Source: Minisyncoccota bacterium
Lineage (GTDB): Bacteria > Patescibacteriota > Minisyncoccia > Phycocordibacterales > UBA9973
DNA: 64,000 nt
Direction: 5' to 3'
NCBI GenBank assembly: GCA_041659205.1
Contig: JBAZYS010000001.1
Span: 54,090-118,089, forward strand
Shown here: piece by piece, positions 8,348 to 55,352 of the stretch
How the letters are laid out: each line of letters opens with the position of its first letter
Numbering within the stretch: the first letter of the stretch is position 1
The notes under the pieces: generated by a model
Seen by the model: the letters and a program-made list of their open reading frames with translations, nothing else
What the model was told of the DNA's origin: nothing
Database searches by the model: none
Position numbers and translations under genes: made by a program

Positions 8348-8962
8348 ATGAATTTATCTAAAATATCATCGAAATGGTTAGTAGTTATTATTGTAGGAAT
8401 TATATTTTCTGCTATAGTAATTTCATTTCTAACTTTTAGTCTACCAGTGAAGGATTCTTTTGCAGAAGCATCTTTTGTTAAAACACAGTCAGTTTTATCA
8501 GCGAAAGCAGATTTAGAATATTCATTTCGTTTGAAGATTCCAAAGATAAATGTAGATGCAACTGTAGAAAATTTAGGTCTTACTTTCGATGGTGCAATGG
8601 AGGTGCCGAAAGGTCCAGCTAACGCTGCTTGGTATAGTTTAGGAACTCCACCTGGGGACATAGGTAGTTCTGTTATCGACGGACACTCTGGGTGGAAAAA
8701 TGGTATACCGGCAGTATTTGATAATTTATATAAATTAAAAAAAGGAGACAAAATATACGTTCAAGACAAGAAAGGGATAGTTACGACTTTTGTTGTACGA
8801 GAGAGTCGCAAATATAATCCAAATGCAGACGCAACAGGAGTATTTACCTCGAGTGACGGTAAAGCACATTTGAATCTTATCACTTGTACGGGTCTATGGA
8901 ATAAAATTTGGAAAAGTCACTCAGAGAGACTTGTAGTTTTTGCTGATAAAGAGCTAAAATAG
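8348..8962 (+). CDS. sortase (transpeptidase)
   Basis: An N-terminal TM anchor is present. The catalytic His is in VIDGHSGW, the Cys in NLITCTG (TLxTC motif), and an Arg in HSERLVVF. It lies 20 nt downstream of the LPKTG protein gene. Confidence 0.8.
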   Translation: MNLSKISSKWLVVIIVGIIFSAIVISFLTFSLPVKDSFAEASFVKTQSVLSAKADLEYSFRLKIPKINVDATVENLGLTFDGAMEVPKGPANAAWYSLGTPPGDIGSSVIDGHSGWKNGIPAVFDNLYKLKKGDKIYVQDKKGIVTTFVVRESRKYNPNADATGVFTSSDGKAHLNLITCTGLWNKIWKSHSERLVVFADKELK

Positions 8963-31525: not shown

Positions 31526-31592
31526 TATTCTATGTAATATAGCATATAAATGGGATATAGGTAAAAAAAATAGTTGAGGTATAATATATATT

Positions 31593-32975
31593 ATGAAAAA
31601 TATAAAAATGTTTTTTCTTATTTTAATAGTTTTGTTTGGGATAGGGCATTCTGTTGCTTTTGCGGCAGATCCGACTATTTCCTCAATAAGTCCTACGACT
31701 GCACATGTAGGAGATACAGTTACCTTAACAGGGACAAATTTTGGTGTGAATACTATTGTTGAATTCTTTAAAAATTACACCGATGGTACAACTGGGTTTG
31801 TGGGTGTTGGTGTCCCGCTTCCAGGAAATACTTCAACTAGTTATGCACTTACTGTTCCTCCTGGGATAAAAGGCTTAGCCACTATTCGTATTAGAAATAT
31901 GTATTCAGATATTGTAAGCAATACCATTACTTTAAATGTATTACCCATAAGTCCCGTTATTGAATATGTCGGTTCAGGTGTTGCTTATCAGGTTCCACAA
32001 AACACTGCACGTCCTGATTTAACGGAGCTATTTTTACATGGTCAGAATATTGATTCTGATTCCGTTATCGTAATTGATAATCAGATAAATGTGAATTGGG
32101 TTTATTGCACTAAAAATTTTGTAAACGATACTTGTTTTTATGTACCTTCGAGTGTTAGTGCTGGGTCGCACTCAATGCATATTAAACAAAAAGATTCCGG
32201 CCTTACTAGCAATACTGTATCTTTGACTGTTATAGATAAACCAATTATTTCTTACATTTCAAAATATCTTACGGTTGGGGCGGCAATTCAAGCTTGTGGC
32301 ATAGGATTTGATTCGAAATCTGTTGCAGTCTTTGACGGGGTGACAGAAGGTGCGCTTTTGACTCCTGGGGTGACAGTTTGTGCTAATTTTAGTATTCCTG
32401 CAACATTGAGTGCTGGCTCTCATTCGTTTCAGATTAAACAAACTGATACGAATGCATTGAGTAATTTACTCACTATTACAGTTGCTGGTGCTGTCGCTGG
32501 GACACCTCCTCCTGTTGTTCCTCCAAAATCTGATCCAATAATCAAATCTCCTCCAATTACTCCTCCAGCAGAGTGTCTCGGTGGTCCCACTGCTTGGGGA
32601 TGTAATACTCCTCCCACCACCCCTCCAATCCTTGGTTGCTCCGGTGGAAACATCTTCAACACCCAAACGGGTTTACCCTGCGTAAATAATGTAGGCAATG
32701 ACAATCAGTCTCCATCAAACTTTCCTTCACAAAGTTCAGGATCTTCGACTTACGACTTCGGTGATAAAACACTCCGTAACGGAAGCAGGGGGGAAGCAGT
32801 TAGAGAATTACAAAGATATTTAAATGATAAATTAAATCTTGGTTTAGTATTAGATGGAAAACTAGGACCAAAAACAATTGCTGTAATCAAGATGTGGCAA
32901 TCTGATCATGGCTTAGTCGCTGATGGACTCATCGGTAAGATGACTAAAGCGCAGATGCTGGCGGAGGTGAATTAG
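31593..32975 (+). CDS. secreted IPT/TIG-repeat protein with C-terminal Cys-loop plus peptidoglycan-binding (PG_binding_1-like) module; paralogue 1 of 4
   Basis: Signal peptide. IPT-like repeats include ISSISPTTAHVGDTVTLTGTNFG. A Pro-rich linker follows. The C-terminus is LGCSGGNIFNTQTGLPCVNNVGNDNQ...RNGSRGEAVRELQRYLN...DGKLGPKTIAVIKMWQ...GLVADGLIGKMT. Confidence 0.75.
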   Translation: MKNIKMFFLILIVLFGIGHSVAFAADPTISSISPTTAHVGDTVTLTGTNFGVNTIVEFFKNYTDGTTGFVGVGVPLPGNTSTSYALTVPPGIKGLATIRIRNMYSDIVSNTITLNVLPISPVIEYVGSGVAYQVPQNTARPDLTELFLHGQNIDSDSVIVIDNQINVNWVYCTKNFVNDTCFYVPSSVSAGSHSMHIKQKDSGLTSNTVSLTVIDKPIISYISKYLTVGAAIQACGIGFDSKSVAVFDGVTEGALLTPGVTVCANFSIPATLSAGSHSFQIKQTDTNALSNLLTITVAGAVAGTPPPVVPPKSDPIIKSPPITPPAECLGGPTAWGCNTPPTTPPILGCSGGNIFNTQTGLPCVNNVGNDNQSPSNFPSQSSGSSTYDFGDKTLRNGSRGEAVRELQRYLNDKLNLGLVLDGKLGPKTIAVIKMWQSDHGLVADGLIGKMTKAQMLAEVN

Positions 32976-38264: not shown

Positions 38265-40442
38265 ATGAAAATATTTAAAGCATCGTTTCTACTTATCTTG
38301 TTTGCAGTCATTGTATTAGGTGGTTTTGGGGTGGTAAAAAGTGCCGATGCAAGTACTTTTTCTTTGTCGAGGACATCAATAAATTTGCAGTATGACCCTC
38401 AGGGAGGGAACACTAGTGCTAACAATGCCTCACAAACTATTGGTCTGACAAATACTACAGCTTCAGATGTTACATATAGTATAAATATGCAAACAGTCTC
38501 AGATCCTTTCGCTGGCAAAATTAATCTTCTCGTTAAATATAACGCGAGGTCTGCGACAACAGGGAATTGGATCGTAGCTAGTGCTACCGACCATGCAGAT
38601 ATGGTGATACCCTCCCAACAATTAATTCTTTCACCTGGGGAAACCGTTTATTTAAGTGTTTGGGGTGGAATTGGTAACACAAATCTATTGCTTTCTCCGA
38701 CGGCATTGCAACTTGTTTCAAATATTATATTTACTGGCAATTTCTCTGATTCGCCAGTAGCTATTCCTGTGATTTGGACCAAACTCCCATATATTACTCC
38801 TACACCCACTCCGACACCAACACCCTCAACAACAACACCTACTCTTTACTCTACCGAACCAAGTCCAGGAAGATTTATTCCAGGGCAAACTATAAAAGTA
38901 TACGCACTCGGCCTTCGTTCTTCTGCGATGAATTCACTTTATATTGATGGTAAAGGTTTTAATAATATGCAATCTTGGAATCCTACTGGAACAAACTCTG
39001 GTGTACCAAATTCTTATGAAACCCTTGTTGCACTTCCTCTTGATTTATCTGCAGGAGCACATATACTTCAAATGGAGACGAGCGACGTTGTAGAAAATTT
39101 TGGAAAAGTTTTAAGTAATTCTCTTCCATTAAATATATTTCGCACTCGCGCAGAGGCAGAAAATCCAGAAGACCCAACTGTCACTTATGTAAATCCAGCA
39201 TCTGCAAAGCCAGGTGATACGGTGACGGTATACGGTACAAATTTTCACAGTGATTCGTATGTGATGCTTGATCCATATTTAGATAGTTACTCTCGGGCAC
39301 AAATGGGAACCAGGGCTACTACCGTAACCCAGACACCGACTTCAATTAGCTTTATCGTTCCTACAAAAATAACAGCTGGTAGTATGTACCCACTTATTTA
39401 CAATTTACATAGAGTGACGGTATTTCCTTCAAAAAACAAACAAGCAACAACTGTTGCATACAATGGTAGTTTATTAAATCGCTATACAATACCGAACAAT
39501 GGAGGAGAATATAGTAATGGATACTTTAATATTGTAAGTGCGGTGACATCAAGTACTCCACAAGCACCAGTCATTACTTCTATTAGTTCTTCATCAATTC
39601 CACAAGGTGGCAGTGGTTCGCGAGACAATGCTCCTGCATCTGGTGCCACTGTAACGATTACTGGATCTGGATTTTCTTCAACCTCAGCTATTGTTGTTGA
39701 CGATGACTCTAACCAATATATTCCCGACGGAATGGCTGGTGTTACTTCCACGGGATTTCCAGTTGTTTCATGGACGACTACATCAATTACATTTAGGGTG
39801 CCGTCAAATATTGCAGTAGGGCAACATTCGATCCAAGTTGGTAGTTGTGGAAATCATGGCAGTCCTTGTGGTGCTTTCCTTAGTAATCCTATTTTAGTAA
39901 CTATCACACCAAGAGGCACTGCAATGGGTAGCACTCCAGGGTACGCGACTTCAAATTTTACACCTATACCTCCACTCACTTGTACCCTCCCACAAACACT
40001 TGTAAATGGCGTTTGTACAACTCCAAGTCAAACACCTCCACCTACCTGCACATTCCCAAAAACATTAGTGAATAATGTTTGTACAAATCCGACTTCAACT
40101 TCAACACCTCTCCCAATCCTAGGCTGTTCGGCAGGTAACATATTCAACACTCAAACAGGTTTACCTTGCGTAAATAATGTTGGTAATGACAACCAATCTT
40201 CAGGAACACCAGCTCCTTACAACTTCGGCACTTCTACACTTCGAAATGGGAGCAGGGGAGAAGCAGTCATGGAATTACAGAGATTTCTAAATGATAAATT
40301 AAATCTTGGTCTAGCAGTAGATGGGAAATTAGGACCACTTACAATCGCCGTTGTGAAGGAGTGGCAAACAGAGCATGGCTTGGTCGCTGATGGTCTAATT
40401 GGTAAAATGACTAAAGCACAGATGCTGGCGGAAGTTGAATAA
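38265..40442 (+). CDS. secreted surface protein with C-terminal Cys-loop plus peptidoglycan-binding module; paralogue 4 of 4
   Basis: Signal peptide, a PTPTPTPTP linker, IPT-like segments and the internal repeat TCT[LF]P[QK]TLVN[GN]VCT. The C-terminus is ILGCSAGNIFNTQTGLPCVNNVGNDNQ followed by the PG-binding motifs. Confidence 0.75.
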   Translation: MKIFKASFLLILFAVIVLGGFGVVKSADASTFSLSRTSINLQYDPQGGNTSANNASQTIGLTNTTASDVTYSINMQTVSDPFAGKINLLVKYNARSATTGNWIVASATDHADMVIPSQQLILSPGETVYLSVWGGIGNTNLLLSPTALQLVSNIIFTGNFSDSPVAIPVIWTKLPYITPTPTPTPTPSTTTPTLYSTEPSPGRFIPGQTIKVYALGLRSSAMNSLYIDGKGFNNMQSWNPTGTNSGVPNSYETLVALPLDLSAGAHILQMETSDVVENFGKVLSNSLPLNIFRTRAEAENPEDPTVTYVNPASAKPGDTVTVYGTNFHSDSYVMLDPYLDSYSRAQMGTRATTVTQTPTSISFIVPTKITAGSMYPLIYNLHRVTVFPSKNKQATTVAYNGSLLNRYTIPNNGGEYSNGYFNIVSAVTSSTPQAPVITSISSSSIPQGGSGSRDNAPASGATVTITGSGFSSTSAIVVDDDSNQYIPDGMAGVTSTGFPVVSWTTTSITFRVPSNIAVGQHSIQVGSCGNHGSPCGAFLSNPILVTITPRGTAMGSTPGYATSNFTPIPPLTCTLPQTLVNGVCTTPSQTPPPTCTFPKTLVNNVCTNPTSTSTPLPILGCSAGNIFNTQTGLPCVNNVGNDNQSSGTPAPYNFGTSTLRNGSRGEAVMELQRFLNDKLNLGLAVDGKLGPLTIAVVKEWQTEHGLVADGLIGKMTKAQMLAEVE

Positions 40443-40507: not shown

Positions 40508-40738
40508 ATGAAAATGTCAAAAGTTGTTAAAATATCTGTTTTAATGTTAGTTGTCGTGCTTGGTTCAAGTTACCTCTTTACTAATGTTGCATTCGCTAAG
40601 AAAAGATATGCTTCTCAAGCTTCTCAAAGACCTGTTTGTGAATATATGCGACCACCAGCTGGTTGTATTTGGGTAGGAATGAAGCCATTTCCAAAATGTA
40701 ATGCTGCACACTTAGAATGTGGCTTACCAACAATCTAA
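40508..40738 (+). CDS. small secreted Cys-rich peptide (hypothetical)
   Basis: 76 aa with a signal peptide (ISVLMLVVVLGSSYLFTNVAFA). The mature part has 4 Cys (CEY...GCIW...CNAAHLEC). Confidence 0.45.
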   Translation: MKMSKVVKISVLMLVVVLGSSYLFTNVAFAKKRYASQASQRPVCEYMRPPAGCIWVGMKPFPKCNAAHLECGLPTI

Positions 40739-40777: not shown

Positions 40778-41086
40778 ATGTTAAAAATAAGACTTCAGAG
40801 AATAGGAAGGAAAAATGATCCAGCATTTCGGGCTGTTTTGACTGATTCGAAAAATAGCACCAAAAGTGGAAAGTTTTTAGAAATACTCGGTACTTATAAT
40901 CCTAAAGCAGGGGAGAAGAATTTACTTGCTGATAGAATTAAGTATTGGATTTCTAAGGGAGCAAAATGCTCAGACACGATGCACAATTTTTTAGTGCACG
41001 ATAAAATTATCACTGGCAAAAAAGTAAATGTATTGCCTAAAAAGAAGCCAACTGTAAAGAGAAAGGAATTGAAAGCGAAGAAGTAG
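40778..41086 (+). CDS. rpsP: ribosomal protein bS16
   Basis: MLKIRLQRIGRKNDPAFRAVLTDS plus a Lys-rich tail. Confidence 0.9.
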   Translation: MLKIRLQRIGRKNDPAFRAVLTDSKNSTKSGKFLEILGTYNPKAGEKNLLADRIKYWISKGAKCSDTMHNFLVHDKIITGKKVNVLPKKKPTVKRKELKAKK

Positions 41087-41090
41087 AAAA

Positions 41091-41110
41091 GACCTGCCTG
41101 CCGGCAGGCA
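41091..41110. repeat. perfect 20-bp GC palindrome cctgcctgccggcaggcagg, intergenic, 5 nt after the rpsP stop
   Basis: Same family as 20971 and 23134. No T-run follows, so it is not a classic terminator. Confidence 0.7.
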
Positions 41111-41212
41111 GGGTTGAAAGCTAAAAAATAATTTTGTATAATTGTTGAAGCAGTCATTCGGTCGTATACTGCAAAGGAAGTTCTAAATTAAAATTTTAAT
41201 TCTGAAAACATT

Positions 41213-41560
41213 ATGATAGAAGAAGCTGATAAGGTATTTCTTGAATACGTAGTAAAGGCACTTGTAGACAATCCAAACGATGTAAAGATTGAGAGAACGT
41301 TAGATGAAATGGGAGTTCTTATAACTCTTACGGTAAATCCTCTTGATATGGGTAAAATTATTGGAAGAATGGGTAATACTGCAAAGGCTATCCGAACATT
41401 ACTCCGCATCATTGGAATGAAGAATAACGCTCGCGTTAATCTAAAAATCAATGAGCCAGAAGGAAGTGTCCGACCCGAGAGAGTGGAACGTCCAGCTATG
41501 AGCACTACACCAACAATGAAAACCGTTGATGAAGCAATGGATGAATTGAAAGGAATATAA
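41213..41560 (+). CDS. KH-domain RNA-binding protein (YlqC/UPF0109-like)
   Basis: The KH motif is GKIIGRMGNTAKAIRTLL. Its position between rpsP and trmD is typical. Confidence 0.8.
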   Translation: MIEEADKVFLEYVVKALVDNPNDVKIERTLDEMGVLITLTVNPLDMGKIIGRMGNTAKAIRTLLRIIGMKNNARVNLKINEPEGSVRPERVERPAMSTTPTMKTVDEAMDELKGI

Positions 41561-41575
41561 TAAAATTAAGTTTTT

Positions 41576-41614
41576 AAAAACACCCTAAGCGAAAGTTTAG
41601 GGTGTTTTTCTTTT
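41576..41614 (+). terminator. rho-independent terminator
   Basis: aaaaacaccctaa-gcgaaagt-ttagggtgtttttctttt. Confidence 0.7.
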
Positions 41615-41725
41615 GTTGACAAAATAGCTTTTTTGTTATATTACTAATTTAGAGATATGCTCCTTGCCATCGTGGTAGCTCAGTTCGAGCCGGAGGAATA
41701 TCTTTTAAACGAAGGAGAGACCAAA

Positions 41726-41935
41726 ATGAATATCTGGGAACACAAAAGCGTAGGGGTTGGTACTGGCCCAAAAGAGCCGTGCCCCGGGAAAAGGGAGGAC
41801 TGCCACCTGCACAAGGAATCTTGGGATTTCAAGAACCGTTGGACCCCCAGGTTCAAGTTCGCCCTTTCTGCGTTGGTGGTGGTCTTTCTCGCCACATACA
41901 CGTTTTGGCCTTTCATTTCGAAGGCCTTCCGGTAG
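41726..41935 (+). CDS. candidate small membrane protein (70 aa) inside a GC-rich island
   Basis: A strong SD (gaaggagag) lies 7 nt upstream of the ATG. The peptide is MNIWEHKSVGVGTGPKEPCPGKREDCHLHK...FALSALVVVFLATYTFWPF, with a C-terminal TM helix. Its GC content is far above the genome background. It is followed by a 12-bp-stem hairpin. Confidence 0.35.
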   Translation: MNIWEHKSVGVGTGPKEPCPGKREDCHLHKESWDFKNRWTPRFKFALSALVVVFLATYTFWPFISKAFR

Positions 41936-41955
41936 ATTCTACCGGCCGCTCTATC

Positions 41956-41992
41956 ATGGCCAGCTTAACCCCCAGGGGACTAAGCTGGCCAT
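41956..41992 (+). terminator. strong hairpin (atggccagctta / taagctggccat, 12-bp stem) followed by an AT-rich tract; terminator-like
   Basis: The two arms are perfect reverse complements. The loop acccccagggga is itself palindromic. Confidence 0.45.
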
Positions 41993-42035
41993 TTAATTTT
42001 AAATAACTAATATTTGTGCTATAAATACAAAATAA

Positions 42036-42740
42036 ATGCGTTTCCACATAATTACAATTTTCCCAGAAATGTTTGATTCTTATTTAAAAGAGTCGATAAT
42101 TGGCCGTGCGATAAAAGACAAAAAGATTTCTATAAAATTTTATAATCCGATGAGTTTTTGTAAGCCTAAAGAGCGTGTGGACGGCAGACCATATGGAGGG
42201 GGCCCTGGAATGGTTTTAAAGCCAGAATTTTTTCTTAAAGCAATTAGTAAAGCTTTGACGCAGTGTTCTCGCTCGGGATCTCCTGCTATGCAAACTCGAC
42301 CACTCTCAAAAACACTACGCCATAGTTTAAAAGTAAAGATAATAATTTTTTCCCCATCAGGAAAAAAGTTTGATACAGCTTATGCGAAAAAATCTGCTCA
42401 AAAATATACAGATATTATTTTAATTTCAGGACGCTATGAAGGCATCGACGCTCGAGTTCAGAAAATATTAAAAGCAGAAGAGATATCAATAGGGGATTAT
42501 ATTTTGACTGGAGGAGAACTTCCAGCTATGATAATGGTCGATTCTATTTCTAGGCAAATCCCAGGGGTTTTGGGTAAATATGAGTCCCTAGAGGAAGAAC
42601 GAGTTTCCACGAGTGAAGTATATACTCGTCCAGAAGTTCTAAAATATAAGGCTAAAAACTATAGAGTCCCCAAGGTTTTGCTCTCGGGGCATAGAGCAAA
42701 GATAGATGAATGGAAGAATGGGAGGAATAAAAAAGACTAA
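42036..42740 (+). CDS. trmD: tRNA (guanine37-N1)-methyltransferase
   Basis: MRFHIITIFPEMF...GRPYGGGPGMVL...ISGRYEGIDARV. It contains an about 20-aa GC-rich insertion (TQCSRSGSPAMQTRPLSKTLRHS). Confidence 0.9.
   Translation: MRFHIITIFPEMFDSYLKESIIGRAIKDKKISIKFYNPMSFCKPKERVDGRPYGGGPGMVLKPEFFLKAISKALTQCSRSGSPAMQTRPLSKTLRHSLKVKIIIFSPSGKKFDTAYAKKSAQKYTDIILISGRYEGIDARVQKILKAEEISIGDYILTGGELPAMIMVDSISRQIPGVLGKYESLEEERVSTSEVYTRPEVLKYKAKNYRVPKVLLSGHRAKIDEWKNGRNKKD
42272..42306. repeat. GC-rich ~35-nt repeat element, copy 2 of 3, inside trmD, in a different reading frame from copies 1 and 3
   Basis: tcgggatctcctgctatgcaaactcgaccactctc aligned against ligA 3423-3457 and tgt 62161-62195. Confidence 0.7.
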
Positions 42741-54070: not shown

Positions 54071-54107
54071 TGTACATTTGAGCGATAAAATGTTATACTA
54101 TTGATAT

Positions 54108-55352
54108 ATGGCTGCAGCTTTTAATGCTATATTTTATATATTGATTTTCTTATCTGTATACGTGCAGGTGTTTTTTTTCGTTACTTTTATTGAAAATAGA
54201 AAAAAAATAGTCACTAGAGATGGGAAAATTAAGCTTGGATATTATCCATCTGTGACTATTGCTATTCCATGTTGGAATGAAGAAAGTACAGTGGAGAGAA
54301 CAGTGCATTCAGTTTTGAATTTATCTTATCCTAAAGATAAGCTTAAAATATTTCTCGTAGATGATGGTTCCACTGATGGCACAATGAATGTTATAAGTAA
54401 ATTTGCAGGTTATCCTAACGTAAAGGTCCTACACAAAGAAAATGGCGGGAAATACACTGCCCTTAATTTAGTTCTTCAAAATTTAGAGACAGAATTTTTT
54501 GGTGGACTAGATGCAGATTCATTTGCAGACCCTGAATCACTTGTTCGAATTATGAGTTATTTTGAGAAAGACATAAACATTATGGCTGTCGCTCCTTCTG
54601 TAATAGTAGATAGTCCAAAAAACTTTGTTCAAGGTGCTCAGAAGGCTGAATATGGTATGGGTGTATATTTTAAGAAAATGCTTTGTTTTTTAAGCGCAAT
54701 CAACGTTACTCCAGGACCGATGACAATTTTTAGGAAAAAAGTTTTTGATGATTTAGGTCCTTATCAACATGGTCACAATACAGAAGATATGGAAATTGCA
54801 TATAGGATGCAGAAAAATGGTTATATAATAGAGCATTGCAATGATGCTTATGTTTATACGAATACTCCAGGAACCATTAGAAAGCTTTATAGGCAAAGAA
54901 TTAGATGGATCTATGGTTTTATAAATAATACGATTGATTATAAGAACATCATCCTTAAGAAAAAATACGGTAATTTTTCTATTTTTACATTGCCGATGGG
55001 TATTATTTCTATTTTCTCTGTGAGCTATCTTTTTGGTCGGATAGTATATAATTTTTTAGATTTTATATATTCAAAAATTATTCAGTTTGAAGTTACTGGT
55101 TTTAGTTTTAATTTACATAAAATGAATTTTGATCCATTTTTTATCAATACTCAATTTTTTATATTTTTAGTTTTTTCTATCTATATTTTGGTTGTTTTTT
55201 CGATGGTTTTCGGACGAAAAATGACGGAAGGGAAATGGGGCTTATCCTTAGATATGCTTTATTTTATTCCCGTGTTTAGTATTGTCGCTCCATTTTGGCT
55301 ACTTAAAGCCGTTTATAATACTCTATTAAATAGAAAGCCTTCTTGGAGATAA
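54108..55352 (+). CDS. processive family-2 glycosyltransferase (NodC/chitin- or hyaluronan-synthase-like), integral membrane
   Basis: DDGSTDGT is present. DxD is in GGLDADSF. Q-x-x-R-W is QRIRW. Multiple C-terminal TM helices. Confidence 0.8.
   Translation: MAAAFNAIFYILIFLSVYVQVFFFVTFIENRKKIVTRDGKIKLGYYPSVTIAIPCWNEESTVERTVHSVLNLSYPKDKLKIFLVDDGSTDGTMNVISKFAGYPNVKVLHKENGGKYTALNLVLQNLETEFFGGLDADSFADPESLVRIMSYFEKDINIMAVAPSVIVDSPKNFVQGAQKAEYGMGVYFKKMLCFLSAINVTPGPMTIFRKKVFDDLGPYQHGHNTEDMEIAYRMQKNGYIIEHCNDAYVYTNTPGTIRKLYRQRIRWIYGFINNTIDYKNIILKKKYGNFSIFTLPMGIISIFSVSYLFGRIVYNFLDFIYSKIIQFEVTGFSFNLHKMNFDPFFINTQFFIFLVFSIYILVVFSMVFGRKMTEGKWGLSLDMLYFIPVFSIVAPFWLLKAVYNTLLNRKPSWR

Follow-up and report, generated by a model that had tools for sequence, protein, structure and literature searches.

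A GC-rich island between a KH-protein gene and trmD in a Nomurabacteria genome: a probable one-gene cassette for a predicted membrane-anchored protein

Bacterial membrane proteins of fewer than 100 amino acids (aa) with a single helix, of which AcrZ, MgtS, MgrB, CydX and KdpF are described examples, are characterised by small size, a transcription unit of their own, restriction to particular lineages and lack of an enzymatic domain. In most of the characterised members the helix lies at or near the N-terminus; in the C-tail-anchored proteins ElaB, YqjD and YgaM of Escherichia coli, a hydrophilic N-terminus is followed by a C-terminal anchor. The locus described here, from a 64-kb stretch of Minisyncoccota bacterium contig JBAZYS010000001.1 (the whole of this stretch being called the window), would resemble the first group in all of these features and has the YqjD-type layout of the second, but no sequence similarity links it to either (Pfam, NCBIfam and PDB searches were empty), and its conserved set of two histidines and two cysteines is foreign to those families. 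It is a GC-rich island (window positions 41640-41995) between the terminator of a KH-protein gene and the promoter of trmD, a junction that often carries accessory cargo in relatives, and it is probably best read as a self-contained monocistronic cassette, made of promoter, leader, Shine-Dalgarno (SD) sequence, 69-codon gene and intrinsic terminator, for an orphan membrane-anchored protein.

Other described systems offer partial parallels. Type I toxins (Hok, TisB, Ibs, Ldr, Zor, AapA) also combine a small open reading frame (ORF) encoding a hydrophobic helix with a long leader that can potentially sequester the SD and with an independent terminator, but the protein described here is longer, carries a 44-residue polar domain, and is accompanied by no evident antisense RNA, no duplication and no long-range mRNA fold that is conserved. 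In zinc-binding anti-sigma (ZAS) factors and other membrane-tethered Cys/His mini-domains, too, an N-terminal Cys/His cluster, cytoplasmic there and predicted to be so here, precedes a transmembrane (TM) helix; the ZAS signature is H-x3-C-x2-C within a helical anti-sigma domain of ~80-90 aa, whereas here the arrangement is H-x12-C-x6-C-x2-H in ~30 residues, with no adjacent sigma-factor gene and no Pfam match. ORFan islets at intergenic hotspots share with the island an atypical composition, a narrow range, a place between intact housekeeping genes and the occurrence of other cargo in relatives, the difference being that no integrase, border repeat or att-like boundary was seen at the island.

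The open reading frame and its counterpart in a related genome

TrmD-anchored searches place the window among the metagenome-assembled genomes (MAGs) of Candidatus Nomurabacteria/Paceibacterota (Patescibacteria). The comparison comprised 160 TrmD-anchored loci, 80 from GTDB (one genome per species) and 80 from JGI metagenome contigs; the JGI scan did not bring up the window's own contig, and its best match, L081 (86% TrmD identity), has only 54 nt upstream. When these 160 loci were searched by nhmmer and tblastn with the island and the peptide, only one proved homologous: L050:3594-3964 (JBAZXO010000001, a Paceibacterota/Nomurabacteria groundwater MAG), in the same position and with the same architecture. 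TrmD is 84% and the KH protein 96% identical between the two, and the ORF of L050 (3704-3904) encodes a product of 66 aa, P0003.

The nucleotide identity of the two ORFs is ~56-60% (59% for the 3' untranslated region and terminator), and the frame is open in both genomes across indels of 3, 3 and 21 nt; of composition-matched shuffles, 4.8% (window) and 1.2% (L050) were stop-free in frame. In a frame-agnostic DNA alignment, the three codon phases differ at 19/56, 17/56 and 32/55 positions (chi-square p=0.005); the counts in a protein-guided alignment are 20, 18 and 37, with a proportion of nonsynonymous differences (pN) of 0.31 against a saturated synonymous proportion (pS) of 0.78. Both copies have also retained the SD and the ATG, despite scrambled surroundings. 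This pairwise comparison shows an ORF that evolves as protein-coding sequence under purifying selection, though fast (nonsynonymous divergence, dN, ~0.4), and the island is very probably a protein-coding gene rather than a non-coding RNA. The parts of the cassette and its limits are the following (window coordinates).

41576-41609, + strand: intrinsic terminator of the rpsP-KH unit, a 15-pair hairpin followed by a T-run (terminator scan)
41606-41632, + strand: promoter-like site read off the sequence, with TTGACA (41606-41611), a 15-nt spacer and TGtTATATT of the extended -10 type (TATATT at 41627-41632)
41640-41725, + strand: putative 5' untranslated leader of ~85 nt, with a conserved core (41660-41703) that contains CUCCUU (anti-SD-like), two small hairpins and GGAGGAA
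41711-41719, + strand: Shine-Dalgarno-like GAAGGAGAG, with a 6-nt spacer to the ATG at 41726
41726-41935, + strand: gene for the 69-aa protein MNIWEHKSVGVGTGPKEPCPGKREDCHLHKESWDFKNRWTPRFKFALSALVVVFLATYTFWPFISKAFR, stop codon at 41933-41935; homologue P0003 in L050
41929-41945, + strand: palindrome ccggtagattctaccgg, which spans the stop codon
41956-41999, + strand: terminator-like hairpin (hairpin proper 41956-41992), with a 12-bp outer stem ATGGCCAGCTTA/TAAGCTGGCCAT, inner CCCC/GGGG, then ATTTAATTTT
42017-42035, + strand: trmD promoter-like box TGcTATAAA, 10 nt before the trmD ATG at 42036

The rpsP-KH terminator is the upstream boundary of the cassette and the trmD promoter-like box its downstream boundary. 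The former, with the 3' end of the KH gene included, is 90% identical in L050, and the KH gene is directly followed by a terminator also in relatives without the island; the segment upstream of trmD is 93% identical, and in relatives without the island a similar -10-like box stands directly after the KH terminator. The promoter-like site is 85% identical in L050, where its TG is TA, and was not listed by the consensus promoter scan because its spacer is 15 nt; its function as a promoter is predicted, with transcription starting near 41640. The ATG at 41657, with which an automatic gene call of 92 aa (P0001) begins, is AGT in L050, where moreover the frames differ, so that the leader is better taken as non-coding and the 69-aa model is better than P0001. 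Over ~20 nt around the SD the identity to L050 falls to 25%, with a 10-nt indel; L050 has GAGGAG 6 nt before its ATG, and a GGAG-type motif lies 6-8 nt before the ATG in both copies. The terminator-like hairpin has its outer 8 bp and its T-rich tail in common with L050, while the interior differs, with one both-sides change. The palindrome is probably incidental, since it is not kept in L050.

A preliminary description of this DNA, made from its letters, had singled out the island as GC-rich and open in three forward frames and one reverse frame, and both observations hold. The window is of low GC (mean 0.358), and the island contains its top-GC 300 nt (0.52 vs 0.36): no other 300-nt segment of the 64 kb reaches those at 41650 (0.52) and 41700 (0.51), the GC of 100-nt segments is 0.49-0.58 over 41700-41999 vs 0.23-0.38 in the flanks, and no 207-nt piece from the long ORFs of the window exceeds 0.48. 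The open frames are 41657-41935, 41757-41996 and 41779-42006 on the forward strand and 41680-41916 on the reverse. When the protein sequence and a GC content at third codon positions (GC3) of 0.68 are held fixed, 2.8% of synonymous resamplings leave both off-frames without a stop; that the other forward frames are open is a little unusual and owes most to composition, and the phase pattern gives these frames no support. The 12-bp-stem hairpin lies at 41956-41992, as described. Some measures are adjusted: the palindrome is one base off the 41928-41944 first given, the SD stands 6 nt rather than 7 nt from the ATG, and the peptide, with its cysteines, three histidines and hydrophobic C-terminus, has 69 aa rather than 70.

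The same description had proposed a search for homologues, and this returned L050 only, with the frame kept. Beyond the 160 loci, a word-indexed search of 5.8 billion protein clusters gave the window protein only and a two-sequence profile search the window protein and P0003 only, while an exhaustive phmmer search of 1.84 billion representatives gave these two and three other matches (P0002, P0004, P0005), which were rejected as homologues, being long repetitive proteins aligned via many short stretches. Among about 15 billion proteins, the 69-aa protein has no relative beyond L050; it is confined to two related groundwater bacteria. The automatic call P0001 had no exact match on record. Pfam, PHROGs, PADLOC, NCBIfam and PDB contain no match for it, and Pfam no family for P0003 either; phages and plasmids (tblastn, blastn) gave nothing or noise at E=0.9, a peptide-profile scan of viral contigs gave nothing, and neither paralogues nor extra copies of the island were found in the window. 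One viral match to a 19-mer of the leader showed no similarity beyond the pattern and was dismissed as chance. No function is transferable by homology, and the cassette would be a fairly ordinary lineage-specific small membrane-protein gene or ORFan islet, one more lineage-restricted protein, if this is true, in the unannotated small-protein fraction of Patescibacteria.

The predicted product and a comparison with toxins

The window protein and P0003 are 45-49% identical, with 30/61 aligned residues shared. Invariant in both are, among others, W4, H6-K7-S8, G12, G14, C19-P20-G21-K22, C26, H29, K36-N37 and T40-P41, as well as a hydrophobic C-terminal block, L50-V51-V52-x-F54-x-A56-x-Y58. In the window protein, a hydrophilic N-terminal part of ~44 aa, which contains the two cysteines (C19 and C26), is followed by a hydrophobic stretch at about residues 45-64. 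In both proteins the first 40 residues are hydrophilic and the hydropathy maximum is C-terminal (2.2 at residues 43-57 in the window, 2.5 at 50-64 in L050). AlphaFold2, run with the two-row alignment, models a confident helix only at residues 41-68 (pLDDT, the predicted local distance difference test score, of 70-87 in this block; mean pLDDT 59).

The 69-aa protein has no signal peptide, and its single hydrophobic helix lies near the C-terminal end, as in tail-anchored proteins; the charge is +4 before the helix vs +2 after it (+3 vs +1 in L050). Because a signal peptide is absent and the more positive charge precedes the helix, the topology would be tail-anchored with the N-terminus in the cytoplasm, and a tail-anchored single-pass membrane protein of this orientation is the moderately favoured prediction. 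The basic N-terminal part of ~44 residues would stay in the cytoplasm, with the last ~20 residues anchored in the membrane. The residues H6, C19, C26 and H29 (H-x12-C-x6-C-x2-H) may hold a metal ion such as zinc, which would give a small folded knob at the membrane surface, with the role of a regulatory or accessory subunit and not of an enzyme. These four residues are invariant in the two sequences, the N-terminal fold is modelled at pLDDT <50, and neither PDB nor Pfam provides a match; metal binding, a hypothesis drawn from the four residues, is doubtful.

A small protein with a hydrophobic helix, preceded by a long conserved leader in which CUCCUU could pair with the SD, also invites comparison with type I toxin-like membrane peptides, whose translation would be held off by a structured leader or by an antisense RNA. 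A HicA toxin at the same junction in the related locus L002 indicates that toxin-antitoxin cargo lands here, and a promoter-like site is present on the reverse strand (42025-41996), although the match is weak (9/12). However, PADLOC, Pfam and PHROG gave no match, and a 44-residue hydrophilic Cys/His N-terminus with a C-terminal anchor is unlike the Hok, TisB, Ibs, Ldr and AapA-type toxins, these being shorter and hydrophobic over nearly their whole length. Moreover, the reverse-strand features are not conserved (the reverse ORF 41680-41916 is broken in L050), no extra copies are present in the window, and the leader is without significant structure. A type I toxin is therefore improbable. The preliminary description had suggested a horizontally acquired toxin-like or regulatory membrane peptide: its coding part stands (frame, third positions, pN below pS, SD and ATG, and helix in both genomes) and a foreign origin is plausible, with no donor, while the toxin-like part is not borne out, given the lack of matches and of conserved antisense features and the long hydrophilic N-terminus.

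Leader, translation initiation and composition

The leader core is 39/44 (89%) identical to L050 (P ~2e-6 against an identity of 55%), although synonymous sites in the neighbouring genes have changed at 44-54% of positions. It matches in conservation the promoter and terminator DNA on either side of the leader, and the untranslated leader is better kept than the protein encoded after it. The window and L050 have a small Y-shaped fold in common. Within the core, CUCCUU could pair either with GGAGGAA or with the true SD, and the conserved leader probably controls expression, possibly through such pairing; that it acts as a translational switch is a speculative and rather unlikely proposal. An alternative reading of the leader hairpin (GCUCAGUUCGAGC) and of the terminator (GCTTAAC) as a tRNA remnant or attC-like site was discarded: ARAGORN and Rfam were negative, the right arm is mismatched and no integrase is nearby.

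The host hardly uses the SD, as an SD-like 4-mer, even a weak one, lies upstream of only 5/40 ORFs of at least 150 aa, and an ~85-nt leader with a canonical SD is for this reason atypical here. Many window genes have instead a TATAAT-like box 6-14 nt before the ATG, e.g., at 42017-42036 (trmD), 27040-27062, 31571-31593 and 54086-54108, which suggests that leaderless or near-leaderless mRNAs are widespread in this genome; a literature search on SD and leaderless usage in Patescibacteria yielded nothing specific. AGGAG-N4-9-ATG occurs 11 times in the window against a chance expectation of 10.5, so that the SD before the ATG at 41726, which the preliminary description had called excellent, is present and is weaker evidence than it appears; it carries weight because it is retained in L050. 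An SD-led gene with a long leader in a seemingly SD-less, leaderless genome is a natural probe of how such ribosomes treat the SD. As a separate observation, GGAGG is over-represented across the window (95 vs 63 ± 6.7 in dinucleotide shuffles), with clusters at 32505-32626 on the minus strand.

The preliminary description had offered, as a second candidate, a non-coding RNA with a fortuitous ORF, and GC-rich islands in AT-rich genomes are indeed often RNA genes. A structured non-coding or dual-function RNA, with the GC content reflecting RNA structure and the ORF fortuitous or secondary, would agree with a unit that has its own promoter and terminator, with a fold of the whole island at z=-3.2 on the + strand, with an untranslated leader that is, rather than the ORF, the most conserved part, and with three forward frames all open. 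The folding signal, however, is similar on the reverse strand (z=-2.8) and is gone without the terminator and the palindrome: the ORF body gives -1.4 (window) and -0.9 (L050), the leader -0.4 and +0.1, and the distant pairing that the window fold predicts between the SD region and the 3' end of the ORF falls in the 21-nt stretch missing from L050. An Rfam cmscan of 41000-42600 at E<=1 gave only four sub-threshold matches, on the two terminators, and L050 was negative too; at gathering thresholds, the scan of the whole window gave two tRNAs, elsewhere, and ARAGORN found no tmRNA or tRNA in the island. The body is only 56-60% identical between the copies, yet the frame is kept and the third positions carry the excess of differences. 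With no Rfam match and no excess folding in ORF body or leader, the RNA candidate is very improbable.

As to origin, the composition of the gene departs from that of its host, a codon-usage and GC3 check that had likewise been proposed. The overall GC is 0.536 vs 0.363, GC3 is 0.68 vs 0.25, and the mean log codon probability is -4.44 vs -3.82 ± 0.12 for host genes in frame; by codon position, the GC is 0.46/0.43/0.68 in the window ORF, 0.48/0.30/0.48 in the L050 ORF and 0.47/0.36/0.25 in the long ORFs of the window. The composition is thus atypical, as in a horizontally acquired islet, while neither a donor nor a mobility gene was found. The pS of the ORF (0.78) is above that of S16, KH, TrmD and a 76-aa secreted protein (0.44-0.56), and the GC3 of the two copies differs (0.68 vs 0.48), which could reflect a compositional shift or drift, or a coding body replaced by a divergent allele. 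Given codons unlike those of the host and a start of the SD type, the probable history is uptake of the cassette from another lineage, or an exchange of its coding body; a foreign origin, which the position in an insertion hotspot also makes plausible, has about even chances and is unproven, because no donor or other homologue was found in the collections searched.

The reading as a self-contained cassette, together with the proposals attached to it, has to be weighed against the following points. All the evolutionary statistics come from only two sequences, that is from one pairwise comparison (window vs L050), and the third-position excess is significant only at p ~0.005-0.013. In the leader, a two-sequence alifold gave no compensatory pairs, and the folding stability is not in excess (z -0.4 in the window, +0.1 in L050). 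The SD motif may go unread in an organism whose own genes lack the SD. GC1 and GC2 (first and second codon positions) are close to the host, so that they do not clearly point to a GC-rich donor, and none of the collections searched yielded a donor. In the product, the hydrophobic stretch of L050 is short (~13-17 residues), and AlphaFold2 gives pLDDT <50 for residues 1-36, the metal-binding knob being a guess from four residues. The most ambitious version has a small chance of being right: in it, the cassette would be a translationally regulated foreign gene in an SD-less, largely leaderless genome, its conserved ~45-nt leader core (CUCCUU ... GGAGGAA) would serve as a cis-regulatory RNA switch of a new type that gates this SD-dependent gene, and the KH-trmD junction would be kept in Nomurabacteria as a specialised entry point for small accessory cassettes, inserted by a novel route independent of integrases.

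The KH-trmD junction and its surroundings

The genes that flank the cassette in the window are the following.

40778-41086: rpsP, upstream of the KH gene
41213-41560: gene for the KhpA-type KH protein (PF13083, E=4.8e-20)
41640-41995: the island, GC-rich, between the KH terminator and trmD
42036-42740: trmD, with its ATG at 42036
From 42967: rpoB, downstream of trmD

As in the canonical rpsP-(KH/ylqC)-rimM-trmD-rplS operon, rpsP, a KhpA-type KH gene and trmD stand here in canonical order, but there is no rimM at this position, trmD comes with a promoter-like box of its own, the next gene after it is rpoB, and the island is an independent unit. KH and trmD share a contig in 75 related loci; KH directly abuts trmD in 45/75 (gap 2-130 nt), while 30/75 have between the two genes 390-3500 nt of mutually unrelated, often GC-rich cargo. 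The cargo includes HicA toxin, PD-(D/E)XK nuclease (PDDEXK_3), NYN domain protein, an isolated TSCPD domain, small TM peptides, Cys-rich small proteins and lipoproteins, with examples at L002:2685-4001 (HicA), L006:3496-4001, L054:3216-4001, L067:2657-4001 (the isolated TSCPD ORF) and L023:3596-4001; no integrase or repeats were noted at the junctions of relatives. This is the behaviour of an insertion hotspot, at which accessory genes recur between rpsP-KH and trmD in this clade, and the island is among its cargoes. Neither the junction nor the SD-led gene nor the conserved leader overturns current understanding.

The island had first been placed where rimM normally sits. The absence of rimM is correct, whereas the notion of a normal position does not apply to this clade: RimM was found in 0/10 of the largest cargo ORFs scanned and at the KH-trmD position of none of the relatives examined, and the 69-aa protein and P0003 have no Pfam match to RimM or PRC-barrel domains. 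Because rimM is missing at this position across the sampled clade, it is not expected there, and the island is not a rimM replacement. Decaying junk, left behind by inserted foreign DNA or by a lost gene (rimM, for example) and now without function, would fit the very narrow distribution (two genomes), the fast divergence and a hotspot that gathers fragments such as the TSCPD ORF of L067, but it is hardly probable at all, as both genomes have kept the promoter, the leader core, the SD and ATG, the frame and the terminator stem while the neighbours have diverged at 44-54% of their synonymous sites, pN is below pS, nothing resembles RimM or any Pfam family, and relatives have no rimM here to decay from.

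Upstream of the cassette, the spacer that separates rpsP from the KH gene contains a perfect palindrome rich in GC, CCTGCCTGCCGGCAGGCAGG (window 41093-41112), which scores as a terminator on the minus strand, with a T-run on that side. Just 5' of rpsP, the 76-aa protein (window 40508-40738, +) has a signal-peptide-like N-terminus and four cysteines; it is kept in position in L050 (L050:2386-2634), evolves fast (dN 0.49, dN/dS 0.48) and belongs to no Pfam family. It is preceded by the gene for a predicted surface protein of 725 aa (window 38265-40442, +), with a signal peptide, a TPTPTP linker and a C-terminal peptidoglycan-binding-like repeat, which has ~60-70% nucleotide identity to L050 vs 83-93% for the adjacent ribosomal genes. 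Among the mid-sized window ORFs checked for RimM, none encodes it; of three that stood out in this check (491-1117, 27062-27574 and 8348-8959), two have prepilin-type N-terminal methylation domains and one is class F sortase-like.

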